Shown: one piece after another, positions 9,175 through 42,508 of the stretch
How the letters are laid out: every line of letters starts with the position of its first letter
Numbering within the stretch: the first letter of the stretch is position 1
Assembly (NCBI GenBank): GCA_030638825.1
Contig: DAOWDU010000014.1
Coordinates: forward strand, 1 to 46,458
Length of the DNA stretch: 46,458 nt
DNA from: a bacterium
Lineage (GTDB): Bacteria > Patescibacteriota > Minisyncoccia > JAHIHE01 > JAGLIN01
Direction of reading: 5' to 3'
Notes under the pieces: generated by a model
The model's database searches: none
The model's input: the letters and a program-made list of their open reading frames with translations, nothing else
Told to the model about the DNA's origin: nothing
Program-made: the position numbers and the translations under genes

Positions 9175-9208
9175 ATTAAGTATTCAAACAAAACTACTAA
9201 ATACTATC

Positions 9209-9246
9209 CATAGCCTCTTTCTCACGGCCGTGAGAAAGAGGCTATG
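9209..9246. repeat. Perfect 38-bp CGGCCG-centred palindrome (solo copy 1)
   Basis: CATAGCCTCTTTCTCACGG|CCGTGAGAAAGAGGCTATG; identical at 30905-30942. Confidence 0.95.
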
Positions 9247-9279
9247 CTTGATATTTAAAATTAAATACAATCCTAATTT

Positions 9280-10290
9280 CTAATTTCCATTCATTTTTCC
9301 ATTTATTATCTCATCCATCTCCCCAAAACTCTCCGCCTCATAAATTTTGCCCTCATCAATCTTATCATAATTATTTCTTACCCTTCCTGATAAAATACAA
9401 ACAGTTTTTTTAAATTTATTTTCTTTGCTTGTTTTTATAACTCCCGCGAAACTCGCGCATCCTTCAGGAGAAGTGTAAATTTTATTATTTTTCAAAATAT
9501 TTTCTGCTTCTAAAATTTCATTGTTATTTACATAAATACTGCTTCCCTCGCTTAATTTTATCAATTCCAAAATTTCTTTCTTTCTTCTGGTGTTTTTTAT
9601 TCCTAATTTTCCAGCAATAGAAAGTTCGTCTTTATTTTGAACCGCATATAACTTTGGCATTTTTTTTATTTCTTTATTTTCCAATAAATACTGCCATGCT
9701 CTGCCAATTCCGACGAATGAACTGCCACTTGTGACAAAAGTAAAAATTGCGTCAACCCTACCTAAATCTTCAAATATTTCAAAAGCGATAGATTTAAATC
9801 CTTCAATTGAAGAATTATTTACGGACGGTCTCAAATTTTCTATTTTGTATTTTGCGGATAAATAATTCGCTAATCTGATTGCTCGTTTTGATTTTATAAT
9901 CACAGGATTATATTTCTGCATTTCCGCTATTTTCGCTTTTTCTGTTTCGGGCGAGATAAAAATATATAATTTTATTCCCGCTTTCTGACAATACGCCGCC
10001 GCCGCGATTCCCGCATTCCCTGAAGTTGAAATTACTAATTTTTTTTTCTTATTTTGTTTCGCCAGTGAAACCTGGTAAGCCAAACTTCTATCTTTTAATG
10101 ATCCGCAAATATTTTCATCCTCTCGTTTAAAATATAAATGATTATAGTTCGACAAGCTCACTATGACACTATTGTCATCCTGAGCTTGTCGAAGGATCAA
10201 CCTATTTTCCATTTCTATAAACTCATCATAAAAATCGGCATATCGCCAAACGCCTTTTTCTTGTTTATTGATTTTACTTTGAAAACTCAT
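9280..10290 (-). CDS. Fold-type II PLP-dependent enzyme (threonine synthase-like)
   Basis: FKREDENICGSLKDR (PLP lysine), STSGNAG, GFKSIAFEIFEDL and SPEG motifs. Confidence 0.85.
   Translation of the reverse strand: MSFQSKINKQEKGVWRYADFYDEFIEMENRLILRQAQDDNSVIVSLSNYNHLYFKREDENICGSLKDRSLAYQVSLAKQNKKKKLVISTSGNAGIAAAAYCQKAGIKLYIFISPETEKAKIAEMQKYNPVIIKSKRAIRLANYLSAKYKIENLRPSVNNSSIEGFKSIAFEIFEDLGRVDAIFTFVTSGSSFVGIGRAWQYLLENKEIKKMPKLYAVQNKDELSIAGKLGIKNTRRKKEILELIKLSEGSSIYVNNNEILEAENILKNNKIYTSPEGCASFAGVIKTSKENKFKKTVCILSGRVRNNYDKIDEGKIYEAESFGEMDEIINGKMNGN
10148..10197. repeat. Inverted pair of TGTC-tagged REP-like units inside a CDS
   Basis: TTCGACAAGCTCACTATGACA-ctat-TGTCATCCTGAGCTTGTCGAAGGAT; translated as ILRQAQDDNSVIVSLSN. 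Confidence 0.85.
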
Positions 10291-10378: not shown

Positions 10379-13300
10379 TTATTTTGTCTCCCCTTTCCCT
10401 TTTCTTCTATAAAAGAAATACCAAGCGCCACCGGCAATAATTATGACAATAATCAAGAACGCGGGCAGATATTTTGAATATCTGTCGCCAGCGTATTCGC
10501 TGTCATCACCATTTTTTTCCTGAATATCCTGAATTGTAATTTCGCTTTTGTCTTCAGTTTCAGTTGTTTTTGTTTCGGTCACATCTTTATCTTCGACTGT
10601 TTCGTCTTTGTTTTCATCTTCGGCTTTATCTTCTTCATCTTCAACTCCGCCTACTCTGCCATATTCATCTTCCCCGTTTCCAGTTTCAGAATCTTCGCCA
10701 TCATCATCAGACATTTCAACGCTCTCGCTTAATATATCAGACATTCTCTCGCTAAATAACGCGACTTCCGCTTCTTGCTCTGCGGTTAGAGGGAATTCTC
10801 TCTGGCAATAAAGTTCGTTGATCTTTTTCTTTGTCGTAATATAGACATAACCAGTCGCTTTGTTATGGCTCCATGGGGAAAGAACATCATTTAAATATTT
10901 TTCCTGAAATCGAGAGACGGCATCAAAATCAACTTGTTCATAAATACCATTTACAAGAAGGTTTTCGCCTTCAAATTCATTCAAAAATCGTTCTACTTTT
11001 TCCACTTCAACGGGATTATTATCAGCGCCTAATTTGATATATTCCAGTAAATAATTACATTCTTCTGGAGGCGGTATCGGCGCTTCCGTTCCTTTTACTT
11101 CTCCCTCTTCAAAAACACAAAATACTTCATCGCCAACAACTTCCTCGCTGCCATTTCTATCCGCGACTGGTCTGAAATAATGCATCGCGCCATCTGTTAA
11201 TCCTGTAATCGTGACGCTATGTTCTTCATACATACTTCCTGATTCTTCATTGACAGAATTATATCCATATCCTGGCGCGTCGCCAAGATTTTCCGTATCT
11301 ACTGAATTATCATCATAAGCGACTTGATTAGTCGTGGTAATATTTGTCTTCCATGTTATCAACGCTTCGCCACTTTCTAAACAATCCGCTTTCTCGTCTG
11401 TTATTTTTATAACTGTTGGCGGTGTCCATCCACCACCACCTCCGCCGCCGCCGCCACACGAACCACAATCCTGCGGACAAGTGGAGCAAGTTTCGTTATT
11501 ATTACAAGTACCGTCTCCGCAATAAGGACTCGGCTCGTTATACTCATCATCATCTTCCGGGTCATAACTCTCCTCATTATTTACATCTCCGTCTGAATGA
11601 CAGCCCGGATCATCCGCATCGGTTAGTCCATCTTCGTCATCATCTAAGCCATTATTACATATAGCGTTAATAATGCATTGATTAGAACAATAAGCGTTAT
11701 CGCCATTATTTTCTCCTTCATCGCACTCCTCGTTATTTTCTTCATCTAAGACTCCATCGCCGCAATAAGATTCCACGATATTGATTATACATTCATTTGA
11801 GCATTCATCATCATCTATACTATTTCCGTCATCACAATCTTCGTCACCATTTTCAATTCCATCTCCGCAATATGGTCCAATTAGTTTTATCGTTTGACAA
11901 GAGCTTGAACAATAATCACAACTATCACCATAAACAGGATTACACTCAACGCCATTATAATCTCCATCATCACATTCCTCATCATTATCTTCATTTATAA
12001 TTCCGTCGCCGCAGTATGATTGGGGAGTCTCAATAAAAACGCACTCGACAGTGCAATTTGCCGATCCATCTGGTCCATCATCACATTGCTCATATCCGTC
12101 GTCTTGCGGACCGCCAGTTTCTTCGTCATTTGGCATTTGTTCAATTCCGTCGCCGCAATAAGTCAGATCGTTCAATGTACATTCATTTGAACAAGATTGA
12201 TGATCTCCAATTCCTTCCTGCCCATCGCATTCTTCGCCATCTTCCACAACGCCGTTTCCGCAATAAGAATTAAATAAATAATTACCAAAATCATAATTTT
12301 CTAAATTCTGCCCTTCAGGCAAAATGATATTTTGATATGAACCGCTAACTGGATAAGTCTGATTAAAAACATCTACTCCTGCTTTACCGCCCTCGTTAAT
12401 TTCATAAGTTCCAGGCAACAATCCCGAGAATTGATAACAGCCGTTTTCATCAGTTAATTGCGCGGCGTTAGAATGCCCACTTAAAATTATTTCCCAGTCA
12501 GGAATAGTTATAGTTTCATCATCTACATTTCCATCATTATCCGTATCTTCGTATTTACATCCGGAGACAGAACCATACTCGCACAACTGTTGAGAAATTT
12601 CTGTGTAGATAGTTGTGAGATCTCCGCTACTTGGCGCATAATAATAACCAGGAGAACCATCTCCTTTTTTAGCGCCAGTGATACTAGCAATCTCAGTTAG
12701 CATCGCAGTATTAATATCGCTTCCCAAACCAATCGTAAATATTTTATATCCTGCGCTCGCCGCAGCACTCGCCGCACTCAAAGCATGTTGTTTATTAGCT
12801 TCATTAACTGCATCATCATCTTCAATATAACGACCGCATTCATAATATTTAAGCTCATTATAATAAGGACAAGTCACTCTTCCGTCTGTCAAAAGAATAG
12901 CCACTTTCACCGCTTGTGGATTTGCTCTTACTGATCCTAATTCTGCGTTAGAAAAATAAATTGCATCTCCAATATTAGTTCCTCCGTCAGCATCTAAACT
13001 ATCAACGGCTAATTGAGTTTCTGCGTGATTATTAGATAACTCCTTATCTATCGGAAAAGTTGCTTCGCTTGCGTACGAAACCAGCGCTGACTGATCACCT
13101 GCTTTTAAATTGTCAATAAAACTATTTGCCGCATTCTGCGCGTTCGTTAATGGCTGAGCGGGACTCACACCGTCATCGTTCATACTACCCGACCGATCTA
13201 TTATCATTACCACATCAACAGCTGCCTCGCACATTTGCTGATTATCTCCCTCCGCTTTTAAAACATCTCCTCCAGGAGTAAGCACTCCTGCCATCGCTAT

Positions 13301-13381
13301 ATTCAGCAGCAACGCGATCATACTAAAGAAAGCTATTTTTTGATTAATCCCCTCTTTTGATTTTTTGTTAATTTTCATCAT
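10379..13381 (-). CDS. Membrane-anchored surface protein: vWA, SdrD-B-like, Cys-rich DUF4215-type repeats, FN3-like, peptidoglycan-binding-like domain, C-terminal TM
   Basis: Signal peptide, MIDAS DRSGSM and LLTDG, CG[DN]G...E.CD.G repeats, acidic linker, TM followed by RRKGK. Confidence 0.85.
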   Translation of the reverse strand: MMKINKKSKEGINQKIAFFSMIALLLNIAMAGVLTPGGDVLKAEGDNQQMCEAAVDVVMIIDRSGSMNDDGVSPAQPLTNAQNAANSFIDNLKAGDQSALVSYASEATFPIDKELSNNHAETQLAVDSLDADGGTNIGDAIYFSNAELGSVRANPQAVKVAILLTDGRVTCPYYNELKYYECGRYIEDDDAVNEANKQHALSAASAAASAGYKIFTIGLGSDINTAMLTEIASITGAKKGDGSPGYYYAPSSGDLTTIYTEISQQLCEYGSVSGCKYEDTDNDGNVDDETITIPDWEIILSGHSNAAQLTDENGCYQFSGLLPGTYEINEGGKAGVDVFNQTYPVSGSYQNIILPEGQNLENYDFGNYLFNSYCGNGVVEDGEECDGQEGIGDHQSCSNECTLNDLTYCGDGIEQMPNDEETGGPQDDGYEQCDDGPDGSANCTVECVFIETPQSYCGDGIINEDNDEECDDGDYNGVECNPVYGDSCDYCSSSCQTIKLIGPYCGDGIENGDEDCDDGNSIDDDECSNECIINIVESYCGDGVLDEENNEECDEGENNGDNAYCSNQCIINAICNNGLDDDEDGLTDADDPGCHSDGDVNNEESYDPEDDDEYNEPSPYCGDGTCNNNETCSTCPQDCGSCGGGGGGGGGWTPPTVIKITDEKADCLESGEALITWKTNITTTNQVAYDDNSVDTENLGDAPGYGYNSVNEESGSMYEEHSVTITGLTDGAMHYFRPVADRNGSEEVVGDEVFCVFEEGEVKGTEAPIPPPEECNYLLEYIKLGADNNPVEVEKVERFLNEFEGENLLVNGIYEQVDFDAVSRFQEKYLNDVLSPWSHNKATGYVYITTKKKINELYCQREFPLTAEQEAEVALFSERMSDILSESVEMSDDDGEDSETGNGEDEYGRVGGVEDEEDKAEDENKDETVEDKDVTETKTTETEDKSEITIQDIQEKNGDDSEYAGDRYSKYLPAFLIIVIIIAGGAWYFFYRRKGKGETK

Positions 13382-13393
13382 AAGCAAAGTTTA

Positions 13394-13416
13394 ATTGATT
13401 AAATATATAGAAAGTT
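13394..13416 (-). promoter_or_regulatory. 23-bp 5'-UTR motif shared by the two vWA paralogues (copy 1)
   Basis: ATTGATTAAATATATAGAAAGTT is identical at 18226-18248. Confidence 0.6.
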
Positions 13417-13512
13417 TGTTATTTTCAAATTTTATGTAAAAACAAAAAACACACCCCCTCCCAAGAGTTTGTTTTTTTATTTTTGTTTTTATTTTTTACT
13501 CAACCCAATCTC

Positions 13513-13546
13513 GGAACCAAGTTCCGTAGACACGGAACTTGGTTCC
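13513..13546. repeat. REP-like hairpin
   Basis: GGAACCAAGTTCCGT-agac-ACGGAACTTGGTTCC, 15-bp perfect arms, directly after a stop codon. Confidence 0.85.
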
Positions 13547-13560
13547 TGTTGTTTTTATTT

Positions 13561-16500
13561 CTACATACTATTCGCGCTTCCCGGCGTTCCTCGCTCCACC
13601 GCATTATCATTATCATCCCAGCCAGTTTTGGTCAAGGCTGTAAACCAACTACTCGCTGAAGTTCCATCTACTGTATTATTTATTCTGGACATTGATTTTT
13701 TATCTCCGTTATCTCCCGCTAATGGCGCGCCTGCTCCATCATCAGCTACATCAATTGGATTATTATTACTACTTTCCGTATCATAAAGCTTATATTGAAC
13801 TGCGGAACTAGGAAGAGAAATTGCTGAATCTATAAAATCAGGGGCAACATTTAAAACTGATTCTCCACCAGTAAACATATGATCTTCGCCATTATTAGAA
13901 ATAAGGAAATAGTCATCTGCTTCAAGTATTCCAGTGTTAATCACAAGCATGGGCGAGTCATTCTTATATATTGACCACGGAGTATCGCTGAAATTAATTT
14001 CAAGAGATGTCATATTTCTCAATTCAATCCACTCGTCGCTTGAAGAAACAGACGATCCCATCCACATTAATTCATTAATAATCACATCGCCTACGCTAAT
14101 ACTACTACTATTTTCCGTTTCACAAATAGCGCTACAGCCATCACCATTTTCTGTGTTTCCATCATCGCACTCTTCATCACCTTCCATGACACCATCGCCA
14201 CAAACAGTCTCCCCTTCTTCAATTACACACAAACTTGAGCATCCATCGCCATCATCTAAATTTCCATCATCACATTCCTCGCCACCTTCCATAACGCCAT
14301 CGCCGCAAATATATTCGTCTTCCCCGCAACTATCATTTTGAGCTCCTGGCGTTCCTAAATTGTTATTACTATAAGAAGATGTTGAAACGCACCAATTGGA
14401 CCCAATATTATTATCGTTAAGCGGATCATTTAAAATCATAGAGGCGCCGTTAGGATCTGGAAATTCTAGTCCTCCGTCATATTCTACCCTATCAATTTCT
14501 ACACTATTACAAATTAAAATAATTTCATCATCTGTGTTTCCTAAAGTGAAACTATAAACATAATCAGGAGTTATACCGTCATTTATTAAGGGATCAATAT
14601 TTTTAGCAAGCACTGCGTATCCGTTTGCTGGAATAATTAGCGCTTCTCCGATTACATGCGGGTCGCTTCCGTTGTCACCGATAGTGCATCCCTCCAAATC
14701 AAGATCACTGCCAGTCGTATTATATAGTTCAAACCATTCGCCATTGGCATCAGAAACAACATCAGGATTCTGCATAATTTCATTAATCACAATATCACCC
14801 GCGCCGATACTGTCGTCATCCTCTAATTCACAGATAGCACTACATCCATCGCCATTTTCCACATTTCCGTCGTCGCATTCTTCATCTCCCTCTCGTACGC
14901 CATCTCCGCAAACAGGTGCGCTACTTTCAATATTACAAACAGCGGAACAGCCATCACCGTCTTCAGTATTTCCATCATCGCATTCTTCATCACCTTCCAT
15001 AACGCCATCGCCACAAATATATTCATCTCCTCCACAGCTATCATTCTGAATTCCCGGCGTTCCCAGATCGCCATTGCTATAGGAAGATGTTGAAAGACAC
15101 CAGTTGGCAAAATCATTATTGTCATTGGCTGGATTATTTAGAATTATAGAAGCGCCGACTCCCTCTGTCCAGCTACTTTCCTCATCATAATTCACTCTGT
15201 TAATTTCTACACTGTCGCAAGTCAAAACAATTTCATCTTCATCGTTTCCTAAAGTAAAACTAGCGTAAACATAATTAGAAATTACACCGCCGTTTTCTTC
15301 GGTATTTCCATTCTTGGCAAGCACCGCGTATCCGTTTGCCGGAACTATTAGAGATTCTCCGATTGGATGAGAATTACTGCCGTCATCAGAAATAATGCAT
15401 CCTTCTAATTCAATGTCGCTACCAGTTGTATTATATACTTCAAACCATTCGCCATTCGCGTCACTTACGGCTGTAGAATCATACATAATTTCATTGATAA
15501 CTACATCATCTAATAATATTGCTACGGAATCATCACTGTCCCCATCTCCGCCATCATTACTTTCTGTTTTACAATCAAAACTGCATCCATCGCCGTCTTC
15601 TGTATTTCCGTCATCGCATTCTTCGCCATCGTCCTCAATTCCATTTCCGCAAATCGGAAAATAATTCCCAAAATCATAGCCGACTTCTTCTTCTCCATCT
15701 TCTAAAATAATATCGTAAGACAATGTCTGCGGATAAGTCTGAATAAAATTAAGACCCTGATTATTCGCTTCTGATACAGTATAATTTCCGCCTGATAATC
15801 CTGTAAAAGAATAACAACCATCGCCATTAGTTAATTGCGTTAACTCTGCGTCTCCGCTTAAACTTATTTCCCAGTCAGACAAAGTCAATTCGCCAAAGAT
15901 CTCACCATCATTATTTGAGTCTTCATATTTACATCCGGAAATAGAACCGTACTGGCAAATCTCATAAGCAATTTCGCTGAATATTTCTTCCAGTTCATCA
16001 GCAGTTGGCGCGTTGTAATATTGAGCGCCAGTGTCAGCAGCGATATTCTGAAGCATTACCTCGTTAATATCATTTCCCAAACCAATCGTAAATATTTTAA
16101 TTCCGGATAGAGCGGCCTCCGCGGCCTTTTCTACGGCATAGGCGACATCAGCTGGATTTTCATTAAAACCATCTCCATTTGGTTTGTTTGCTAATCCATC
16201 AGTCAAAAGTATTTCTATCTTTAGAACATCTTCAGCGCTGCTTGAAAATTCATCATTAGCAAGTCCAATCGCGTCTCCTATGTTCGTCGCTCCAGACGCT
16301 GCTAAACTACTTATCGCTGTTTGAGTGATGAGGTGATCGTTAGAAAAAGGCTTGTTTAAATTAGCTGTTGTGCTAAATGAAACCAAGGCCGAGCGATCGT
16401 CAGAACCTAATTTTCCCACAAAACTGTTTGCCGCGATTTTTGCCTGGCCGAGACGAGTAGGGATTTCCCAACCCATACTTCCAGAGCGATCTACTATAAC

Positions 16501-18213
16501 CACTGTATCTAATTTAACCCGGCATAAACTTTCCAAAAGAACACAGCTTGCGGAACAAGTTTGATTTGCGCCTACTCCATCCTCGCCGTCACATTCTTCA
16601 TCGCCCTCTTTAATATCATTCCCGCAAATAGGACCTTGATATGGATCTAAATAAATACAAATCATTTCTAAGTTCACACTATTAGCGTGTATATCTGGCG
16701 GACACTCTGAAGTAGTGTTCATATAAACTGTCTGCAATCCTTCTACAAAAGAAAAGGCTCCTAAAGGTTCAAATCTAGTCGTGATTGCGTCTGGATCAAG
16801 ATCATCTTCAGAAATTATTCCATCCGTTCCGTTAATTTCTAAATAGAACGCTTCATTTGTTTGCGCTTGACCAAGATTACCGCGAGATGATAAACCATAA
16901 ACTTCCCCTTGAGCAGCCCAAGGAGCACTAATATCTACACTATCCTGAATTCGTCCTGATGAATGGCAACCATCTCCAACAACCCACAAAGCAGGATCTA
17001 AATCAATAATTAAATCAGCGTCCTCACAGAGACTTCTTATCTCGCATTGCGTTGAACAAGTTGAACCAGGCTCGTCGCTATTGTCATTGCCCTCGTCACA
17101 TTCTTCGGGTATTTCTAAAATCCCATTTCCACAGTCGTCTTGAACTGGAAAATAGTTTCCAAAATCTTTACCAGTCAAATGTTCTTCATTGCCTAAAGTT
17201 ATATCGTAAGATAATGATGGCGGATATGTTTGGATAAAATCTGTTATTCCATCCTTACCTCCTTCGCCAACAATATAATTTCCAGCCAATAAACCTGAAA
17301 ATTGATAACAACCATTTTCATCCGTCAGCTGCGTAATCGGACCATTTGTTTCGCCAGTTAAAATTATTTCCCAGTCAGAAATAGCGTCTTCTATAACAAA
17401 ATCTTCATTATCGCCGTCATTGTCAATGTCGTTGTATTTACATCCCGAGATAGATCCGTATTCGCATAACTCCCACCTAATAGATTCGTAGATGCTTTCC
17501 AAGTCTTCACTGTTCGGCGCGTGATAATATGCCGCGCCAGTGGTCTCTGCGACTTCCTGTAACATCTCTTCGTTTATTTTATATTGATCACCCAATCCGA
17601 TTGTAAATATTTTATATCCCAAGCCCGCGGCAGCGTTTGCGGCATCCAAAGTATAAGCGATATCCTCATCATCTTCCACAAAACCGCACATGCCATATAT
17701 TGAAGAATCATAGTAAGGGCAGGTCGCTCTTCCGTCCGTTAGAAGAATGGCCGCTTTCACCGCTTGCGGATTTGTCCTTGCGGATCCCAACTCTTGATTG
17801 GAAAGATAAATCGCATCGCCGATGTTTGTTCCGCCTTTTGCTCTTAAGTTACTGACCGCTGTTTGAGTAACAGAATGATCGCCAGACAATTCTTTGTTTA
17901 AAGTTGCCTCGCTCGCGTACGAAACTACTGCTGACTGATCATCCGCGCCCAAGTTGCTGAGAAAATCGTTTGCTGCGTTTTTCGCCTGCGATATTCTAGT
18001 TGGAATTTCCCAGCCCATGCTTCCAGACCGATCCATTATCAAAACAACATCAACCGCCGCTTCGCATAGCTCTTCTTCTATCGGCGCTCCTCTTGCTTCT
18101 GGAGCAGACAGAAATACGCCTGCCATTGAGACATTCAAGAGCATTGAAACTACGCTCAAGAAAGCTACCTTTCTGCAAACCCCCTCGTATGATTTTTTAC
18201 TTAGTTTTTTCAT
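13561..18213 (-). CDS. Large secreted protein: 2x (vWA + SdrD-B-like), DUF4215-type Cys repeats, 3 lamin-tail domains
   Basis: Two DRSGSMGWEIPTR vWA starts, CGDG..EECDDGN repeats, three VINE[IL]M...EW[FI]E.[YR]N...GTPG..N modules. ATG at 18213. Confidence 0.85.
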   Translation of the reverse strand: MKKLSKKSYEGVCRKVAFLSVVSMLLNVSMAGVFLSAPEARGAPIEEELCEAAVDVVLIMDRSGSMGWEIPTRISQAKNAANDFLSNLGADDQSAVVSYASEATLNKELSGDHSVTQTAVSNLRAKGGTNIGDAIYLSNQELGSARTNPQAVKAAILLTDGRATCPYYDSSIYGMCGFVEDDEDIAYTLDAANAAAGLGYKIFTIGLGDQYKINEEMLQEVAETTGAAYYHAPNSEDLESIYESIRWELCEYGSISGCKYNDIDNDGDNEDFVIEDAISDWEIILTGETNGPITQLTDENGCYQFSGLLAGNYIVGEGGKDGITDFIQTYPPSLSYDITLGNEEHLTGKDFGNYFPVQDDCGNGILEIPEECDEGNDNSDEPGSTCSTQCEIRSLCEDADLIIDLDPALWVVGDGCHSSGRIQDSVDISAPWAAQGEVYGLSSRGNLGQAQTNEAFYLEINGTDGIISEDDLDPDAITTRFEPLGAFSFVEGLQTVYMNTTSECPPDIHANSVNLEMICIYLDPYQGPICGNDIKEGDEECDGEDGVGANQTCSASCVLLESLCRVKLDTVVIVDRSGSMGWEIPTRLGQAKIAANSFVGKLGSDDRSALVSFSTTANLNKPFSNDHLITQTAISSLAASGATNIGDAIGLANDEFSSSAEDVLKIEILLTDGLANKPNGDGFNENPADVAYAVEKAAEAALSGIKIFTIGLGNDINEVMLQNIAADTGAQYYNAPTADELEEIFSEIAYEICQYGSISGCKYEDSNNDGEIFGELTLSDWEISLSGDAELTQLTNGDGCYSFTGLSGGNYTVSEANNQGLNFIQTYPQTLSYDIILEDGEEEVGYDFGNYFPICGNGIEDDGEECDDGNTEDGDGCSFDCKTESNDGGDGDSDDSVAILLDDVVINEIMYDSTAVSDANGEWFEVYNTTGSDIELEGCIISDDGSNSHPIGESLIVPANGYAVLAKNGNTEENGGVISNYVYASFTLGNDEDEIVLTCDSVEINRVNYDEESSWTEGVGASIILNNPANDNNDFANWCLSTSSYSNGDLGTPGIQNDSCGGDEYICGDGVMEGDEECDDGNTEDGDGCSAVCNIESSAPVCGDGVREGDEECDDGNVENGDGCSAICELEDDDSIGAGDIVINEIMQNPDVVSDANGEWFELYNTTGSDLDLEGCTIGDNGSDPHVIGEALIIPANGYAVLAKNIDPLINDGITPDYVYSFTLGNTDDEIILICNSVEIDRVEYDGGLEFPDPNGASMILNDPLNDNNIGSNWCVSTSSYSNNNLGTPGAQNDSCGEDEYICGDGVMEGGEECDDGNLDDGDGCSSLCVIEEGETVCGDGVMEGDEECDDGNTENGDGCSAICETENSSSISVGDVIINELMWMGSSVSSSDEWIELRNMTSLEINFSDTPWSIYKNDSPMLVINTGILEADDYFLISNNGEDHMFTGGESVLNVAPDFIDSAISLPSSAVQYKLYDTESSNNNPIDVADDGAGAPLAGDNGDKKSMSRINNTVDGTSASSWFTALTKTGWDDNDNAVERGTPGSANSM

Positions 18214-30714: not shown

Positions 30715-30898
30715 AGTTTTAATTTAACTTGTTTAATTAACGAATATTTAAAAAACGATTTATTGTTTTCATAAAGCTTTCCTGAATTACATCCTACCAC
30801 ATTAACCAAGGATAGTGGCATACATCGTAAAATCTGTCAAGAGGTCTGCCTTAAAATTATCCTAAATTAGAATTCACTTTAAAAAATTTACACAACAT

Positions 30899-30948
30899 AA
30901 AAACCATAGCCTCTTTCTCACGGCCGTGAGAAAGAGGCTATGGTTTTT
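30899..30948. repeat. Perfect 50-bp CGGCCG-centred palindrome (solo copy 2)
   Basis: 38-bp core identical to 9209-9246, plus 6 extra paired bases on each side. Confidence 0.95.
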
Positions 30949-30977
30949 TCTGGGTATTTCTACTACTAAAGAATTAT

Positions 30978-35863: not shown

Positions 35864-37420
35864 ATGTCAAACAATAAATTCTACATCACCACCTCCATCG
35901 CCTATGCCAACGCTGTGCCGCATATTGGGTTTGCGATGGAAGTTTGCCAGGCGGATGTTTTGGCAAGATACCACAGGATGCTTGGTGATGATGTTTTTTT
36001 CTTATCTGGAACAGACGAAAATGGATCAAAAATAAAAAAGACTGCGCTTGAAAATAAAACAGAGCCGCAAAAATTTGTTGATGAAAATTCGGCTAAGTTT
36101 CAGTTATTATTAGATACACTTAATATTTCTAATAACGATTTTATTCGCACGACAGATCAAAAACGGCATTGGCCAGCAGCGCAAAAAATTTGGAATAAAT
36201 TAGTTGAAGCTGGAGATATTTATAAATCAAACTATGAAGGTTATTATTGCGTCGGCTGTGAGGCGTATTTAACTGAAAAAGATTTAGTTGATGGTAAATG
36301 TCCAAATCATCAAAAAGCGCCGGAAAAAATCAAAGAAGAAAATTATTTCTTTAAACTTTCTAAATATTCAGAAATTATTCAGGAAAAAATTGAATCAGGC
36401 AAACTTAAAATTCTGCCGGAAGCGAGAAAAAATGAAATTTTAAATGTGATAAAATCAGGATTAAAAGATGTCAGCTTTTCTCGTCCTAAAAATATTCTTG
36501 ATTGGGGCGTTCCTGTTCCCAATGACGATTCACAAACAATGTATGTCTGGTGCGACGCGCTGACAAATTATATTTCTGCATTGGGATATGGCCAAAAATC
36601 CAGTAGAGGTTCGGCCTCCACGCTGGAGGCCGAACCTCTACTGGATTTTTGGCCCGCCGACATTCACATTATCGGCAAAGACATTTTAAGATTTCACACC
36701 GCAATTTGGCCAGCAATGTTATTATCAGCTAATTTACCTCTTCCCAAAAAAATATTTGTCCATGGATTTATAACATCCGACGGGCAAAAAATAAGCAAAT
36801 CGCTCGGCAATGTCATTGATCCGTTTGAAGTAATTGACAAATACGGCGTTGACGCTTTGCGATATTATTTATTAAAAGAAATTCCCTCCGGAAACGACGG
36901 CGACTTTTCGTATCAAAGATTTGAAGAGATTTACCAAGCGGATTTAGCGAATGGAATTGGAAATTTGACGGCAAGAATTATTACTTTGGGAATTAAGAAT
37001 CAGGAATCAGGAATTAAGAATCTGAATAAAAATTCAGAGCTTAAAACTAAAGCAGAAAATACTTGGAATAATTACGAAAAATCATTAAACAATTTCAAAC
37101 TAAACGAAGCGTTAGAAATAGCAAAAAAATTAATGAGTACTTGCGATGAATATATTGAACAGAATAAACCGTGGCAATTGGAAGAAGAGAAAAAGAAAGC
37201 AGCAGTTATTTATAATTTATTAGAAAGCCTCCGTCATATCGCCTGGATGATATATCCTTTTATGCCAGAAACTTCAATGAAGATTTTTGAGCAATTATTC
37301 GTGGATGAACAGGAAAGAAAAATTAAATTGAATAAAAATTTAAAAGAAGCGCAAAAATGGGGCGGATTGAAATCTGAAACAAAAATAAAAAAAGGCGAGA
37401 TTTTGTTCCCGCGCTTATAG
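35864..37420 (+). CDS. metG: Methionine--tRNA ligase (short form)
   Basis: FYITTSIAYAN..PHIG, GTDE, YVWCDAL, GKDILRFH and KISKS motifs. Confidence 0.97.
   Translation: MSNNKFYITTSIAYANAVPHIGFAMEVCQADVLARYHRMLGDDVFFLSGTDENGSKIKKTALENKTEPQKFVDENSAKFQLLLDTLNISNNDFIRTTDQKRHWPAAQKIWNKLVEAGDIYKSNYEGYYCVGCEAYLTEKDLVDGKCPNHQKAPEKIKEENYFFKLSKYSEIIQEKIESGKLKILPEARKNEILNVIKSGLKDVSFSRPKNILDWGVPVPNDDSQTMYVWCDALTNYISALGYGQKSSRGSASTLEAEPLLDFWPADIHIIGKDILRFHTAIWPAMLLSANLPLPKKIFVHGFITSDGQKISKSLGNVIDPFEVIDKYGVDALRYYLLKEIPSGNDGDFSYQRFEEIYQADLANGIGNLTARIITLGIKNQESGIKNLNKNSELKTKAENTWNNYEKSLNNFKLNEALEIAKKLMSTCDEYIEQNKPWQLEEEKKKAAVIYNLLESLRHIAWMIYPFMPETSMKIFEQLFVDEQERKIKLNKNLKEAQKWGGLKSETKIKKGEILFPRL
36590..36654. 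repeat. Perfect 31-bp inverted repeat inside metG
   Basis: GGCCAAAAATCCAGTAGAGGTTCGGCCTCCA-cgc-TGGAGGCCGAACCTCTACTGGATTTTTGGCC. Confidence 0.95.
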
Positions 37421-37423
37421 TCC

Positions 37424-37628
37424 TGTCATTCTGAACTTGTTTCAGAATCTATTGATCATTACACTAATTTAATCCATAAATCACATAACATTTTTACTAA
37501 GGCGAAAACGCAATTATTATGTTAAATAAAAGAACAATCGCATTTACGCTTTAGATGAAAGATAATTTTTAAATAGGACAATTCAAAACCTAAGACATAA
37601 AAGATCCTAAAACAAGTTCAGGATGACA
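37424..37628. mobile_element. 205-bp element with TGTC-tagged 27-bp terminal inverted repeats
   Basis: TGTCATTCTGAACTTGTTTCAGAATCT versus AGATCCTAAAACAAGTTCAGGATGACA (24/27 complementary). Confidence 0.7.
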
Positions 37629-37654
37629 ATTTTTAAATTGATTAAAATTGAAAA

Positions 37655-38443
37655 ATGATTGATTCACACGCCCATACGGACTTTAAAGAATTTGACGATG
37701 ACCGCGAAGAAGTTATCAAACGGTTTTTTGAAGGTGGCGGAGAAAAAATTATCAATGTCGGGTGCGACTTAAAATCAAGCGTGAGAAGCTATGAGCTTGC
37801 CAAAAATAATGAGAATATTTTTGCTTCCGCTGGAATACATCCTCACGACGCGGATACTGTTGATAAAAATAGTTTAAGAAAGATCGAAGAACTTGTCCAG
37901 CATTATAAAGTAATAGCTGTCGGCGAGATTGGCTTGGATTATTTCAGAAATTTATCACCGCAAGAAAAACAGATAGAAGCGTTTAGATTACAGCTTGAAC
38001 TTGCCGATAATCACAAGATGCCGCTTATTATTCATTGCCGAGACGCTTATAACGATTTAATAGATATTTTAAAAAGTTACCAAACAAACAGCTGGCGTGG
38101 TGTTATTCACTGTTTTGGTGGCAGTCAAAAAATCGCTGAAGAATTTTTGGAACTCGGATTTTACATTGGTTTTACAGGAACTATTACTTATTATAAAGAT
38201 AAGTCAAAATTAGGAAATGAACCTGAAATATATAGAGTTATAAAAAATATGCCGTTAAATAAAATTTTAATTGAAACAGATTGTCCTTATCTTGCGCCAG
38301 TTCCAGAGAGAGGAAAAAGAAATGAACCGTTATTTGTCCGATATGTCGCTGAAAAAGTCGCGCATATTAGAAATGTAGATTTTAAAGAAATTGAAAAAGC
38401 GACAAGCGAAAATGCGATTAGATTGTTTAATTTAGAAAAGTAA
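37655..38443 (+). CDS. tatD: TatD-family DNase
   Basis: IDSHAH, GIHPH, GEIGLDY, IHCR, IHCF and ETDCPYLAP motifs. Confidence 0.96.
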   Translation: MIDSHAHTDFKEFDDDREEVIKRFFEGGGEKIINVGCDLKSSVRSYELAKNNENIFASAGIHPHDADTVDKNSLRKIEELVQHYKVIAVGEIGLDYFRNLSPQEKQIEAFRLQLELADNHKMPLIIHCRDAYNDLIDILKSYQTNSWRGVIHCFGGSQKIAEEFLELGFYIGFTGTITYYKDKSKLGNEPEIYRVIKNMPLNKILIETDCPYLAPVPERGKRNEPLFVRYVAEKVAHIRNVDFKEIEKATSENAIRLFNLEK

Positions 38444-38539
38444 GCAAATTTTTCTTGACATAAATAATGTAAATAATATTTCTTTTCAAACAACACCTTT
38501 CACAACACTTTCATTAAAAACTAAAAAAATCTCAACAAC

Positions 38540-38597
38540 TAATATAAGTATAACCTCTTTCTGAACGGCCGTTTGAAAAGAGGTTATACTTATATTA
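38540..38597. repeat. CGGCCG-centred palindrome upstream of the PaaX-like gene
   Basis: 58-bp near-perfect palindrome; 40-bp core at 38549-38588. Confidence 0.92.
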
Positions 38598-38641
38598 CAA
38601 ATTGGCATAAAATAGAATCATAAAATTTAACTAGAACTATT

Positions 38642-39172
38642 ATGAAATTACCAGTTACCGAAAAATTTTTATTGGATGTGTATAATTACACTGAAAAGTT
38701 AAATGAGACTTTTGATTTGTTCGCTCCTCGAACGATGAAGGAAGTTTGTTGTCCCGCTCTTTATGAATTAAAACAAGAATATAAAAAGCAAAAGGCAAAA
38801 CAAAAATTTAGTCAGTTGGTTTATCGTCTGAAAAAGAATGGCTATATTAAAATTAAAAATTTAGAACAAAATGAAGGAATTATCTTAACAGAGAAAGGAA
38901 CTGAAAAGGTTTTAAAAACAAAGCTTAAAATGCAAAACAAGAAAAAAAGATCTGATGAAAAATGGCAAATGATAATTTTTGACATTCCTGAAAGGAAAAA
39001 AGGATTAAGAAATTTATTGCGAGGAAAACTTCGTCTCTTAGAATACAAAATGCTTCAACAGAGCATTTGGATTTGTCCTTATAATGTTCAAAAAGAAACG
39101 CAGTTTATTTTAAGAAAATATTCTCTTGACTCATATGTAAAATTATTCCTAATAAAAGAAATAGAGATATAA
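38642..39172 (+). CDS. PaaX-like protein: winged helix + Cas2-like domain
   Basis: VYRLKKNGYI...LTEKG, then WQMIIFDIPE...R..LR..L...YKMLQQSIWICPY. Confidence 0.85.
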   Translation: MKLPVTEKFLLDVYNYTEKLNETFDLFAPRTMKEVCCPALYELKQEYKKQKAKQKFSQLVYRLKKNGYIKIKNLEQNEGIILTEKGTEKVLKTKLKMQNKKKRSDEKWQMIIFDIPERKKGLRNLLRGKLRLLEYKMLQQSIWICPYNVQKETQFILRKYSLDSYVKLFLIKEIEI

Positions 39173-39207
39173 CCTCTTTTTGAACGGCCGTTTGAAAAGA
39201 GGTTATA
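39168..39207. repeat. CGGCCG-centred palindrome overlapping the PaaX-like stop codon
   Basis: 39/40 identical to 38549-38588. Confidence 0.92.
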
Positions 39208-39307
39208 AATAAAATTTGTTAGTTTTATTGGTTATGGATTTTTAATAGCGTTGCTGACGATAATACATCTAAATTATTTATACAGACAAAATTAACATAA
39301 ATTTAAA

Positions 39308-42300
39308 ATGCAAAAATACAATCCTCAAAAAATTGAAAAGAAATGGCAGAAAGAATGGGATAAAAGCGAGATTTACAAGGCAGAAGATTTTTCTGAGAAG
39401 AAGAAGTTTTATTGCTTAATTGAATTCCCCTATCCATCTGGCGCTGGTTTGCATGTGGGACATTTAAGAAGTCATATTGCGATTGATATTATTGCTAGGA
39501 AAAAAAGAATGAGTGGATATAATGTGATGTATCCAATCGGCTGGGACGCTTTTGGGTTGCCGACAGAAAATTTTGCGATTAAGACAAAGACTCATCCAAA
39601 GATCGTGACGGAAAATAATATCAAAAATTTTACCAAGCAAATCAAAAGCTATGGACCAAGTTTTGACTGGTCGCGGGAAATAAATACCACTGATCCAAAA
39701 TATTACAAATGGACACAGTGGATTTTTTTGAAATTATTTAATAGCTTTTATGACGAGAAATTAGATAAAGCGCGTGATATTAAATATTTAGATATTCCGA
39801 AAAATTTAAATGCTTTAGAAAAAAGGGAATTTATTGACAGTCATAGATTAGCTTATGAAGCGGAAATGGCAATCAACTGGTGCCCGAGTTGTAAAATTGG
39901 ATTAGCGAATGAAGAAGTTGTGAATGGCACTTGCGAAAGATGCGGGGCTTTGGCAGAGAAAAAAATTATGAAACAATGGATGTTGCGAATCACAAAATAC
40001 GCAGATAGGTTGATTAAGGATTTAGATACTGTTGATTATTTAAATAAAATTAAAACGCAGCAGGTTAATTGGATTGGGAAATCAGAAGGAGCGATAGTTA
40101 AGTTTCAAATTAAAACTGACGACAATATAAAAACCCCGGAGCATAGCTCAGAGGTTTTTAATGAACCTGAGGGTAATCCCAGGTGCAGATCAAAGACTTG
40201 TCATCCCATTTACAATAATAGTATAAATGATAATGAAAAAGTTGTCAAGTCCAAAAATGACGCTGAGCCGGCAGAGGGATTCGAACCCTCAGATAATAGG
40301 ATGACAAATCTATATCTGCACCATGCTACTGGCAAATCAACGCCAAATTTATTATACCACTCTTTGAAAGTTTTTACCACTCGCCCCGATACTTTATTCG
40401 GATGCACTTATATGGTTTTATCGCCAGAACATCCACTAATTAAGAATTTAGAATCTGGAATTTTGAATTTAGAGGAAGTTAAAAAATACATTGAACAAGC
40501 GAAAAATAAATCTGATTTAGACCGAACTGATTTGGCGAAAGAGAAAACGGGAGTTGAATTGAAAGGAATTAAAGCGATTAATCCAATTAATAACGAAGAA
40601 ATTCCAATCTGGCTTGCGGATTATGTTTTGGCTTCTTACGGCACTGGCGCAATTATGGCGGTACCTGCGCATGATGAGAGGGATTTTGAGTTTGCGAAGA
40701 AGTTTGGATTGGAGATAAAGCAAGTTGTAGCGCCATTGTTTATTGGTGAAGGAAAAAATAAAATTAGAAAAGATAAGAAAAATACGAAAAGAACGGTTGT
40801 AGATGTTATAATTAAGCATTGGGAAAAAGATGAATATTTTTGCTTAGACTGGAGTAAAAGTAAAAATGATTGGAAGTCTTTTGTTGTCGGTGGCGTTGAA
40901 AAAGGAGAGAGCGAAGAGGAAGCAGCTTTGAGAGAGGCAAAAGAAGAATCTGGTTATCAAAATATGCGTGTTGTGAAAAAAATTGGAGGCATAGCCTATA
41001 GTCGTTTCTTTGCGGCTCATAAGGATGTTAATCGTCGTGATATAAAAAGAAGTTGTGTCTATATAGAATTATTGAATAGTAGTTTTATAGAACCAAAAGA
41101 AGAGGAAGTAAAAAATCATAATGGTATTTGGGTTAAAAAAGAAAAAGTAAAAGATTTCATAAATTTACAAGAACCAAAGATTCATTGGGATATTCTTCAA
41201 AATGGGGAAAAACCTTTTATAGGGTATGGTATTGCAATAAATTCTGAACAGTTTAATAATTTAGAAACCAGCGAATTTAAAATAAAAATAACCAAATGGC
41301 TGGAAGAAAACAACCTTGGCAAAAAAGCGATAAATTATAAATTGCGTGATTGGGTTTTTTCTAGACAGCATTATTGGGGGGAACCGATTCCAATTGTGAA
41401 ATGTGAGAAGTGCGGGAATATTGCGTTAGAAAAAAAAGATTTGCCTCTTGAACTTCCAGATGTCAAAAATTATGAGCCGACAGATACTGGCAAATCCCCT
41501 CTTGCAAAAATTGATCAGTGGGTAAATATAAAATGTCCGAAATGCAATAGCAATGCCAAAAGGGAAACTGACACGATGCCGAACTGGGCTGGGTCAAGCT
41601 GGTATTTTTTGCGATATATAGATTCTAAAAACAATAAAGAATTTGCTTCACCAGAAAAATTAAAATACTGGATGCCTGTTGATTTATATAACGGCGGAAT
41701 GGAACACACGACTTTGCATTTGCTTTATTCTAGATTTTGGCATAAGTTTTTATATGATTTAGGATATGTAAATACTTCCGAGCCATACAAAATACGAAGA
41801 TCTCACGGAATGATACTTGCTGAAGATGGACAAAAAATGAGCAAGTCCCGCGGAAATGTTGTTAATCCTGATGAAGTTATTGAGAAATATGGAGCGGATA
41901 CTCTCCGTCTTTATGAAATGTTTATGGGTCCGTATGGCGACGCAATTCCATGGAGCACGAGTAGTTTGATTGGGATGAATAGATTTTTGGAAAAGATCTG
42001 GAAAATGCAAAATAAAGTAGGGACACAAAATTTTGTGTCCGCAAACAAAAATATAGAAACATTGCTTCATCAAACAATAAAAAAAGTTACAGAAGATATT
42101 GAAAATTTAAAATTCAATACGGCGATTAGTTCACTAATGATTTTGTTAAATGGACTAGATAAAAAAGAAAAAATATCAAATATTCAATATTCAATATTCC
42201 TAATTATGTTATCCCCTTTCGCTCCGCATATTACAGAAGAATTATGGAAGATGTTTGAAAATAAAGAAAGCATTCATTTGCAGAAATGGCCAGAATACAA

Positions 42301-42508
42301 TGAAAAATTAGCTGAAGAAACAGAGATAACTTTAGTCATTCAAATTAACGGCAAAGTGCGAGACCAAATAGAAGTTCCAGCTGATATTTCCGAAGAAGAA
42401 GCAAAAAAAATCGCTTTAGGAAGAGATAAAATAAAAAAATGGACTGAAGGAAAAGAAATGAGGAAGATTATTTTCGTAAAAGGGAAATTGGTCAATGTGG
42501 TTGTGTAG
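39308..42508 (+). CDS. leuS: Leucine--tRNA ligase with an 82-aa insert and a NUDIX domain insertion
   Basis: FPYPSGAGLHVGH, TTRPDT, GTGAIMAVPAHDERD and KMSKS motifs; Nudix box GGVEKGESEEEAALREAKEESGY. Confidence 0.97.
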   Translation: MQKYNPQKIEKKWQKEWDKSEIYKAEDFSEKKKFYCLIEFPYPSGAGLHVGHLRSHIAIDIIARKKRMSGYNVMYPIGWDAFGLPTENFAIKTKTHPKIVTENNIKNFTKQIKSYGPSFDWSREINTTDPKYYKWTQWIFLKLFNSFYDEKLDKARDIKYLDIPKNLNALEKREFIDSHRLAYEAEMAINWCPSCKIGLANEEVVNGTCERCGALAEKKIMKQWMLRITKYADRLIKDLDTVDYLNKIKTQQVNWIGKSEGAIVKFQIKTDDNIKTPEHSSEVFNEPEGNPRCRSKTCHPIYNNSINDNEKVVKSKNDAEPAEGFEPSDNRMTNLYLHHATGKSTPNLLYHSLKVFTTRPDTLFGCTYMVLSPEHPLIKNLESGILNLEEVKKYIEQAKNKSDLDRTDLAKEKTGVELKGIKAINPINNEEIPIWLADYVLASYGTGAIMAVPAHDERDFEFAKKFGLEIKQVVAPLFIGEGKNKIRKDKKNTKRTVVDVIIKHWEKDEYFCLDWSKSKNDWKSFVVGGVEKGESEEEAALREAKEESGYQNMRVVKKIGGIAYSRFFAAHKDVNRRDIKRSCVYIELLNSSFIEPKEEEVKNHNGIWVKKEKVKDFINLQEPKIHWDILQNGEKPFIGYGIAINSEQFNNLETSEFKIKITKWLEENNLGKKAINYKLRDWVFSRQHYWGEPIPIVKCEKCGNIALEKKDLPLELPDVKNYEPTDTGKSPLAKIDQWVNIKCPKCNSNAKRETDTMPNWAGSSWYFLRYIDSKNNKEFASPEKLKYWMPVDLYNGGMEHTTLHLLYSRFWHKFLYDLGYVNTSEPYKIRRSHGMILAEDGQKMSKSRGNVVNPDEVIEKYGADTLRLYEMFMGPYGDAIPWSTSSLIGMNRFLEKIWKMQNKVGTQNFVSANKNIETLLHQTIKKVTEDIENLKFNTAISSLMILLNGLDKKEKISNIQYSIFLIMLSPFAPHITEELWKMFENKESIHLQKWPEYNEKLAEETEITLVIQINGKVRDQIEVPADISEEEAKKIALGRDKIKKWTEGKEMRKIIFVKGKLVNVVV
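40128..40160 (-). terminator. Terminator-like hairpin, antisense within leuS
   Basis: TAAAAACCTCTGAGC-tat-GCTCCGGGGTTTTTA on the minus strand. Confidence 0.55.
40220..40248 (-). promoter_or_regulatory. Near-consensus sigma70 promoter, antisense within leuS
   Basis: TTGACA-17 bp-TATACT. Confidence 0.7.
40266..40333 (-). ncRNA. 68-nt tRNA-like RNA (D-arm reduced), antisense within leuS
   Basis: Acceptor GCCAGTA/TGCCGGC (6/7 pairs), perfect T-arm GAGGG-TTCGAAT-CCCTC, loop TTTGTCA, no encoded CCA. Confidence 0.65.
40351..40359 (-). promoter_or_regulatory. Extended -10 promoter for the tRNA-like RNA
   Basis: TGGTATAAT, 17 nt upstream of the tRNA-like 5' end. Confidence 0.6.
42017..42040. repeat. 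GTAG-tagged palindrome inside leuS
   Basis: GTAG-GGACACAAAA|TTTTGTGTCC; translated as VGTQNFVS. Confidence 0.75.

Follow-up and report, generated by a model that had tools for sequence, protein, structure and literature searches.

A PaaX-like gene between cognate palindromes in Patescibacteria: a putative autorepressor in an exchangeable, repeat-associated module

Why should a small PaaX-like gene lie between two nearly identical palindromes, the second of which supplies its stop codon? The locus that raises this question lies on contig DAOWDU010000014.1 of the patescibacterial assembly GCA_030638825.1, and the stretch analysed, positions 1 to 46,458, is referred to below as the window. The genome comprises 57 contigs and 1.145 Mb with 34% G+C, is 99.5% complete, and is called G000 among the genomes compared. 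An earlier reading made from the letters alone (the sequence-only reading) had described the gene as a stand-alone winged helix-turn-helix (wHTH) plus Cas2-like gene and proposed a new repeat-associated mobile system, analogous to repetitive extragenic palindromic (REP) elements with their REP-associated tyrosine transposases (RAYT); an autoregulated repressor with a dispersed regulon was its alternative. Our analysis favours, with a probability of about one half, a PaaX-like dimeric autorepressor acting on its own palindrome, carried in a module of variable copy number that behaves as a REP-like family and to which we assign no mobilising enzyme.

The 40-nt palindrome pattern gave exactly two matches in the window, 38549–38588 and 39168–39207 (none in 100 dinucleotide-preserving shuffles). 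The two copies differ at a single position (C/T) and are thus 39/40 identical, and the TAA stop of the 176-aa open reading frame (ORF), at 39170–39172, falls within the second one, so that the bracketing described in the sequence-only reading was confirmed. The upstream copy is the core of a longer palindrome of 58 nt with 29-nt arms that are 90% complementary; as a single-stranded DNA hairpin it folds at −16.7 kcal/mol (z −9.7). Palindrome, promoter, gene and palindrome form a module of about 670 bp that ends 100 nt 5′ of leuS, the neighbouring genes being metG, tatD and leuS. The sequence-only reading was also right that no paa catabolic genes are found near the gene. Its statement on cas1 and on CRISPR arrays agrees with the lack of any Cas1 (PF01867) match across the whole genome and of regularly spaced identical repeats in a repeat scan of the window, no dedicated CRISPR-array finder having been run.

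The link between gene and palindrome clearly extends beyond this locus. The genome holds two further copies of the gene, one at 19377–19907 of contig C55 (75% identical) and one at 1–231 of contig C53, the latter cut by the contig end. In the C55 copy, a family palindrome abuts the stop codon and another lies about 50 nt before the ATG; in the C53 copy, a diverged palindrome follows at the stop, and its two arms have changed together. A family palindrome is therefore present at the stop codon in 3/3 paralogs, and 50–55 nt before the ATG in both paralogs having upstream sequence. Of the 41 relatives searched, 23 gave a match at E ≤ 0.001; close homologues (E ≤ 1e-40) were found in 12/32 genomes of the order and in neither of the two same-genus genomes (94% and 70% complete). 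The close set included 20 distinct homologues from 14 genomes, with 19 loci scored. A CGRYCG-centred dyad with at least 15/20 positions paired was found upstream in 16 and downstream in 17 of the 19 loci, the dyads missed being degenerate copies or cut by the edge of the scored window or locus. An upstream palindrome occupies the homologous position in 19 of the 20 close homologues, and in most close loci the downstream dyad starts between 13 nt before and 3 nt after the end of the stop codon.

The same arrangement was observed in metagenomes, where the family is represented by at least 346 confirmed stretches. From the best 80 of these, we obtained 64 unique loci with enough flank, showing 43–77% identity. 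A segment shared between the upstream and downstream flanks (at least 16 matches) was present in 44/64 loci vs. 5–7/64 in mismatched-locus controls. Palindromes with at least 12 paired positions per arm were found downstream in 31/64 and upstream in 29/64 loci, compared with 2/128 control windows at locus ends. The expectation of the sequence-only reading that homologues would be flanked by a palindrome family of their own is thus borne out in the close and the metagenome loci. In distant relatives (29–39% identical, about 185–215 aa), which have a hydrophobic N-terminus, 11/17 loci had upstream and downstream flanks with a common segment of at least 15 matches, a set that has no chance control; the same limit applies to genome G035, whose seven paralogs mostly have private repeat types. 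The dyad centres in the family include CGGCCG, CGATCG, GCGGCCGC, AAGCTT and GCTATAGC. Taken together, these results show that a gene bracketed by cognate palindromes is a general pattern and not a peculiarity of the window.

What is conserved in these palindromes is largely the pairing. In the 38 gene-flanking copies analysed, 85.5% of the arm positions formed Watson–Crick pairs, vs. 53% with shuffled partner arms (65% at most among 500 shuffles). Two to four pair types occurred at almost all positions from 4 to 20 of the arm, the central CG..CG pairs being invariant and the T–A run at positions 8–10 hardly varying. Upstream and downstream copies were 80% identical within a locus (n = 18) and 50% identical between loci (n = 343), and the own-locus partner was the best match in 13/18 cases and within the top three in 18/18. 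The single strands of these copies fold stably, with energies of −12 to −25 kcal/mol and z between −7 and −12. Mismatches on the sense strand showed no strand bias (25 of the G–T type vs. 23 of the A–C type), thus giving no sign of selection on one RNA strand.

The protein itself was matched by PaaX_M (PF20803; E 1e-19, 70.8 bits at a cut-off of 24) over residues 102–170 of its 176, and three PaaX_M matches were found in the genome. The PaaX N-terminal wHTH family (PF07848) gave no match at E up to 1; the structure model places helices and a beta hairpin at residues 38–97. The PaaX_C effector domain (PF08223) was not matched, the protein stopping at residue 176, and the NCBIfam PaaX equivalog TIGR02277 scored 31.4 bits vs. 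its cut-off of 264.55. There was no match to the Cas2 Pfam family (PF09827) at E up to 1, and the Y1 HUH transposase domain (PF01797) was not found in the protein. The secondary structure of the model and the fold matches together indicate a ferredoxin-like fold at residues ~105–172. Foldseek ranked E. coli PaaX (8a39, probability 1.00) first, with an alignment spanning 129 columns, followed by Cas2 and VapD structures, among them the SSO8090 RNase and a VapD endoribonuclease; some of these relatives were deposited as nucleases, judging by the record titles. All E-values were weak (3e-3 and above), with probabilities near 1. A PDB sequence search with the protein and with the family profile gave no meaningful match, and a homodimer prediction scored 0.23 (mark 0.42) and was not used as evidence either way. 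These results agree with the sequence-only assignment to a PaaX-like gene with a Cas2-like domain and a probable wHTH, and we infer that the product is a minimal PaaX-type regulator, with a putative winged-helix DNA-binding part and a Cas2-fold dimerisation domain and without the ligand-binding C-terminus.

At E up to 1e-5, 198 homologous proteins were collected, the named ones coming from Patescibacteria and being labelled hypothetical, PaaX or Cas2. The Atlas cluster matches (n = 30) carried PaaX_M together with CRISPR_Cas2, the latter on a minority of members, in 27 cases and PaaX_M alone in 3, all from phyla of the candidate phyla radiation (CPR). None of 71 pattern matches on viral contigs was confirmed as a relative. 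The homologue alignment has 23 invariant columns, among them D114-I115-P116-E117, R123, R127, Q139, S141 and W143, the D-I-P-E stretch being invariant in 57/57 aligned homologues. In Cas2, the Asp after strand 1 has a catalytic meaning. The sequence-only reading had regarded the FDIPE motif as retained: it is indeed present, but being invariant family-wide it is no sign that this member kept an activity lost by others. It is a feature of PaaX_M in general and does not show catalysis.

If the protein is a repressor of its own gene, the upstream palindrome should stand in a definite relation to the promoter, and this is what we found. In the close clade, a conserved TGTATAAT-type box follows the upstream dyad, and this tie is kept in loci L008, L009 and L044 despite an unrelated insert between the box and the ATG. 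Among 66 loci having an upstream dyad, 28 have a −10-like hexamer that starts 16–17 nt from it on the gene side, compared with 2 of the 65 scored on the mirror side; a start at 37–41 nt was found at 14 loci on the gene side and none on the mirror side. In the 16–17 nt class, the −10 lies within the gene-proximal arm, and the ATG is 26–43 nt from the dyad. In the 37–41 nt class, it is the −35 region that the arm covers; the window locus belongs here, its predicted hexamer starting 38 nt from the dyad. Such a fixed, directional distance between dyad and promoter matches the prediction of an autoregulated repressor, and we propose the upstream palindrome of the window as an operator covering the −35 region of the gene's promoter. 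The inserts mentioned above, of about 190–270 nt in L044 (G008:C28), L008 and L009, part the palindrome-promoter unit from the ATG and are an observation in their own right; that of L044 has inverted-repeat ends, like a miniature inverted-repeat transposable element.

Furthermore, the module can be present or absent at a given site. In the same-genus genome G001, tatD and leuS are 4–7 nt apart with no palindrome, so that the empty tatD-leuS site which the sequence-only reading had suggested looking for does exist; three other relatives have unrelated genes between the two. Close homologues recur after tatD and/or before leuS (6 loci), between pilD and ligA (4) and before the malic enzyme gene (3), and were also found between a NUDIX and a thymidylate-synthase-like gene (2) and between those of a class-V aminotransferase and ThiI (1). 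The NUDIX|thymidylate-synthase-like site is filled in G008 and G009 and empty in the window genome, where the gap is 22 nt and holds no palindrome. With few exceptions among the close loci, both neighbours are read in the same direction as the gene, and the downstream dyad lies 2–73 nt before the next co-directional ORF in 25/40 scored loci. The protein tree does not follow these sites: the tatD copy of G005 has as its sister the pilD-ligA copy of G008 (98/94 support), the pilD-ligA copy of the window genome groups with the NUDIX-site and malic-enzyme-site copies (99/97), and a third group (93/94) unites those pilD-ligA copies that belong to G007 and G011. Cassettes of the same clade at different sites have DNA 75–97% identical from palindrome to palindrome and 30–45% identical just outside. 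Stable synteny, which the sequence-only reading had named as evidence against itself, is thus not what the relatives show. The results demonstrate a discrete, exchangeable module of variable copy number, present or absent between close relatives and re-assorting among a few intergenic sites.

Apart from the module, the palindrome is dispersed on its own. A loose pattern, CTTT-N(3-6)-CGRYCG-N(3-6)-AAAG, gave 18 matches in the window genome vs. 1 for the reversed control; five flank the three genes and 13 are solos, so that the family is dispersed in the same genome, as had been supposed. Both solos that the sequence-only reading had noticed near 9209 and 30905 of the window were found (Table 1). 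All solos are intergenic and lie within ~70 nt of a gene 3′ end at 10/11 sites; four are between convergent genes and one between divergent genes. The solo at 30895–30952 folds at −25.1 kcal/mol and, with its A5/T5 flanks, resembles a bidirectional terminator; its core (30899–30948) is cleanly absent at the orthologous syntenic site of G001, just as the solo on contig C57 is cleanly absent at that of G013. The solo at 9198–9257 has no counterpart in the aligned region of G013. Around three further solos, on C17, C31 and C51, there is no continuous synteny with G001 and G013, and the orthologous flanking gene has no family palindrome beside it. Most solos have A-rich and T-rich extensions, and in 9/13 six or more of the 12 nt that span the stem end are T, vs. 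at most 4 in the five cassette-flanking copies of the window genome. No terminator-like site was called in 38300–39500, and the two cassette copies of the window lack a T-tail, a result that holds for cassette copies only. Several essential downstream genes start 15–50 nt after the 3′ copy, which must therefore permit read-through. The solos, for their part, look like bidirectional terminators that were gained or lost recently.

Table 1. Coordinates of the palindromes, the predicted promoter element and the gene in the window.
Feature	Coordinates	Strand	Remarks
Upstream palindrome	38540..38597	.	58-nt extended dyad; 40-nt core 38549-38588; axis between 38568 and 38569
Predicted extended −10 element, TGn + CATAAA	38603..38611	+	In register with TGTATAAT of homologous loci
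176-aa gene	38642..39172	+	N-terminal helical/winged-helix part and C-terminal PaaX_M (Cas2-like ferredoxin fold)
Downstream palindrome	39168..39207	.	39/40 identical to the upstream core; holds the stop codon 39170-39172
Solo palindrome	9198..9257	.	Core 9206-9249; minus-strand ORFs on both sides, the 3′ end of one being 41 nt away
Solo palindrome	30895..30952	.	Core 30899-30948; A5/T5 flanks; 43 nt past a gene 3′ end

Transposition, however, is not demonstrated by this picture, as old insertions together with recombination between paralogs or strains would give the same. No target-site duplications were recognisable at the tatD-leuS site or the two clean solo sites, the flanks being too diverged for certainty, and no excision junction was seen at these sites or in the contigs of sequencing runs. 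The window stretch was found in four DNA sequencing runs of one study, with no RNA run among those listed. The contigs of the runs that were placed on 37400–40400 contained no joint skipping the cassette, though contigs cannot reveal rare excised forms; unitigs stop at both cassette palindromes, as repeats would cause. Campbell-type integration into a pre-existing solo was considered and rejected, as the two empty sites (tatD-leuS and NUDIX|thymidylate-synthase-like) have no palindrome at all. Enzymes of the REP kind are encoded elsewhere in the genome: there are three Y1_Tnp (RAYT/IS200-type) matches, on C41 (region 2241–2956), C23 (1560–2165) and C27 (899–1480). Just upstream of the ORF at C41:2351–2956 stands a palindrome that belongs to a different family (centre CATTCGCGAATG), and another copy of it lies within the ORF; classical REP-type systems therefore coexist in the genome with the one described here, which strengthens the analogy. 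At least 10 other dispersed palindrome families are present, and many repeated palindromes lie at gene ends. The three Y1 transposases are candidate enzymes that could act in trans.

How, then, may the module work? The upstream copy is most economically read as a 40-bp dyad that lies across the gene's own promoter and would be occupied by a minimal PaaX without effector domain. The protein would bind as a dimer to its own ~40-bp dyad and, as the upstream copy appears to overlap the −35 region (in more distant clades, the −10 box), would repress its own transcription; for both steps, homology to PaaX and the geometry are the grounds. The near-identical second copy starts at the stop codon, just 5′ of the housekeeping gene that follows in the same direction (here leuS). 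In this place it could act as a gate or an insulator for transcription, or form a loop together with the first site. With the solo hairpins at gene ends added to the module, the whole resembles in its behaviour a family of REP-type repeats that is served by a dedicated binding protein. The repeats could be spread by the Cas2-like domain of the protein, by host recombination or by one of the Y1 transposases. A more general formulation, that there is a CPR-wide REP-like class whose winged-helix/Cas2-fold protein recognises the hairpin or cruciform, controls its own promoter and copies the solos or shuffles the cassette, either itself or via host enzymes, is offered tentatively.

Several observations weigh against this autorepressor model. 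A generic promoter scan of 38300–39500 gave 5 sites vs. 5.4 expected and did not list the proposed −10, so the window element (TGn + CATAAA) is a prediction, and its hexamer, CATAAA, is weak. A plain operator needs no palindromic inner 28 bp, yet the arms keep two to four pair types at nearly every position, and this co-variation of the inner arms suggests that hairpins or cruciforms are formed, or that some mechanism copies the arms. Near-identical upstream and downstream copies would also be expected from recent duplication or gene conversion without selection by the protein. The position of the solos at 3′ ends, four of them between convergent genes, leaves a repressor nothing to repress. 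Finally, the tracking of gene and palindrome is imperfect: at least 5 pattern matches were found in 6/12 gene-bearing vs. 1/20 gene-lacking genomes of the order, counts that come from related genomes, are not independent and were subjected to no statistical test; gene-lacking G016 and G022 still carry 7 and 4 palindromes, and gene-bearing G012 and G029 score 0, their dyads being missed by the pattern used. Of the autoregulated repressor with a dispersed regulon, the alternative in the sequence-only reading, the autoregulatory half thus gains from the fixed dyad-promoter geometry, and the dispersed regulon does not fit where the solos lie.

A more active role of the protein is possible, though we consider it doubtful: as the nuclease or recombinase of a REP/RAYT-like mobile system, it would itself recognise the palindrome in hairpin or cruciform shape and copy or move solos and cassette, autorepression being a side function. 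Much of what was described above suits this idea, namely the cognate flanking repeats, the dispersal at gene 3′ ends, a repeat type that tracks the gene type, compensatory changes that keep the palindromy, and near-identical solos absent at orthologous sites, with two clean cases (30899–30948 vs. G001; C57 vs. G013). The palindromes bound the module exactly and the module re-assorts among sites; the Asp of the Cas2 beta1 motif is invariant, with some Cas2/VapD fold relatives deposited as nucleases; and the Y1_Tnp gene beside a different palindrome family indicates that REP-type systems operate in this genome. Against an enzymatic function, FDIPE is shared with PaaX_M as a whole, and PaaX itself is a known repressor; neither target-site duplication nor excision junction was seen; the same few sites recur, which old insertions and recombination between paralogs or strains could explain; the 2–23 palindromes per genome are far below typical REP families; and the Y1 transposases could do the work in trans. 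The mobile system proposed in the sequence-only reading is therefore upheld in its repeat pattern, which is genuine, and weakened in its enzymatic part by the family-wide motif, the lock on the promoter and the Y1 genes. At the other extreme, the protein may be an ordinary local transcription factor, the palindromes being operators of its own gene and of whichever housekeeping gene lies downstream (leuS, ligA, malic enzyme, ThiI and others), the solos decayed or exapted, the patchiness ordinary gene loss, the tree conflict recombination between paralogs, and nothing mobile. The fixed, directional promoter geometry, the short distance from downstream dyad to next co-directional ORF, the co-directionality with both neighbours in nearly all close loci and the mostly private repeat types of the seven G035 paralogs (no chance control) are as this would have it. 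We nevertheless judge it unlikely, as the same cassette clade precedes different genes in different genomes, empty sites lack both palindromes, the solos are recent, near-identical and often between convergent genes, and the inner arms co-vary like a hairpin.

Two further explanations shift the attention to the transcript. The Cas2/VapD-fold domain might bind or cut hairpins in RNA, for instance at mRNA 3′ ends, its own mRNA included; this would agree with the SSO8090 RNase and VapD endoribonuclease among the fold relatives, with stably folding solos at mRNA 3′ ends, and with a downstream copy that is certainly transcribed if leuS and ligA are read through. We regard it as highly improbable, since the mismatches show no wobble signature (25 vs. 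23), the upstream copy lies before or across the −10 box and so outside the gene's own transcript, and the closest structural relative is a DNA-binding repressor. Still less credible is the idea that the palindromes are merely intrinsic terminators or insulators with which the gene hitch-hikes, without any protein-DNA relationship. The A/T-rich tails on both sides of solos, with at least 6 T in 12 nt at the stem end in 9/13, and the many other repeated palindromes at gene ends are what terminators would show, but the window cassette copies have no T-tails, none of the five cassette-flanking copies exceeds 4 T in 12 nt, and the essential genes 15–50 nt after the 3′ copy need read-through. Nor would one expect of generic terminators the within-locus matching, the private types per paralog and the fixed promoter geometry. 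The autorepressor carried in a re-assorting, REP-like module remains the reading that we prefer.

Some other features of the window were recorded alongside. The leuS product (39308–42508, 1066 aa) contains a NUDIX domain (Pfam E 9e-12) at residues 518–614, between the editing and catalytic parts. Within the metG frame (35864–37420), a near-perfect palindrome of 65 nt at 36590–36654 (31-nt arms, 100% complementary, 3-nt loop) leaves the frame unbroken and resembles an in-frame insertion of a repeat element into an essential gene. Very high-copy short repeats occupy 37420–37650, where the summed contig depth in the four metagenome runs is in the thousands at 37400–37500 and 37602–37702, and the palindrome at 10148–10193, which has about 50 short near-identical matches in G001. 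On the minus strand, 11776–17993 holds long families of diverged direct repeats (units of 97–300 nt, 60–84% alike), rich in codons giving Cys/Asp repeats and presumably lying within very large repetitive surface-protein genes.

Full-text searching of the literature, at the level of listings and the opening lines of abstracts, found no description of this protein family or of the gene-palindrome arrangement. Patescibacteria (CPR) have tiny genomes with few recognisable regulators or mobile elements, yet this protein family is very common there. A private dyad at both ends and at the promoter of each gene gives a concrete candidate function to a large family of uncharacterised proteins, and the family may offer a ready-made set of orthogonal protein-operator pairs. 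If it is true that the protein drives the spread of the repeats, it would be a second, non-HUH solution to the REP problem, and would tie the Cas2 fold to palindromic repeats outside CRISPR. It would also provide a present-day parallel to the way in which a Cas2-like protein was first linked with such repeats. On the practical side, the palindromes break assemblies: many homologues are on 1–3 kb contigs, and unitigs end at palindromes.

Among the known systems, Cas2 and VapD share with the window protein the fold of residues ~105–172 and the invariant Asp after the first strand. Some database records of homologues carry the name Cas2, and the association with palindromic repeats of ~36–40 nt bears a superficial likeness to CRISPR repeats. 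The genome has no Cas1 match, the protein has no PF09827 match, its Cas2-like part is fused to a putative DNA-binding domain, and the repeats bracket a gene without forming a spacer array. In a sister family, in G029 (L012:1398–2378) and G031 (L011:1407–2258), the gene is followed by 3–4 more palindrome-like repeats with a period of 91–106 nt. A CRISPR-like reading of these short arrays was set aside, as the repeats are 61–79% alike and the stretches between them look homologous, by eye, between both genomes; spacers are thus conserved from one to the other. Integron cassettes (ORF + attC) and IS200/IS605-type elements resemble the module in that an ORF is tightly bounded by structured imperfect palindromes, the stop running into the 3′ one, and in that a discrete cassette occupies recurrent sites with structure rather than sequence conserved. 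Unlike them, the cassette here contains no integrase or TnpA and always carries the same gene family with its own promoter, and no arrays of unrelated cassettes were seen.

The resemblance to REP/RAYT systems goes further, as the gene is bracketed by cognate palindromic repeats, the family is dispersed extragenically at gene 3′ ends, often between convergent genes, and the type and abundance of repeats track gene presence (in related genomes). The differences are that the protein is no HUH/Y1 transposase, separate Y1_Tnp genes being present in the genome; that the repeats number 2–23 per genome vs. hundreds; and that the gene is multi-copy and itself re-assorts between sites, its catalytic role being only putative. 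The closest comparison is with PaaX of E. coli (PDB 8a39; PF07848 + PF20803 + PF08223), the best structural match, which shares the PaaX_M/Cas2-like domain. PaaX combines a wHTH and a dimerisation motif with a C-terminal effector domain; it represses transcription from its own promoter by obstructing RNA polymerase, and its operator, TGATTC(N27)GAATCA, is a dyad spanning 39 bp (PMC9493321). This operator has about the same span as the 40-bp dyad overlapping the promoter here. PaaX is a protein of ~300 aa with PaaX_C, and paa genes are linked to it, whereas the window protein has 176 aa and no PaaX_C or PF07848 match, and neither the window gene nor the other copies have paa neighbours. Unlike the PaaX operator, moreover, the site described here is palindromic throughout and able to form a hairpin; it recurs at the stop codon and, in the form of solos, elsewhere, and the gene that it accompanies is multi-copy and patchily distributed across CPR genomes.

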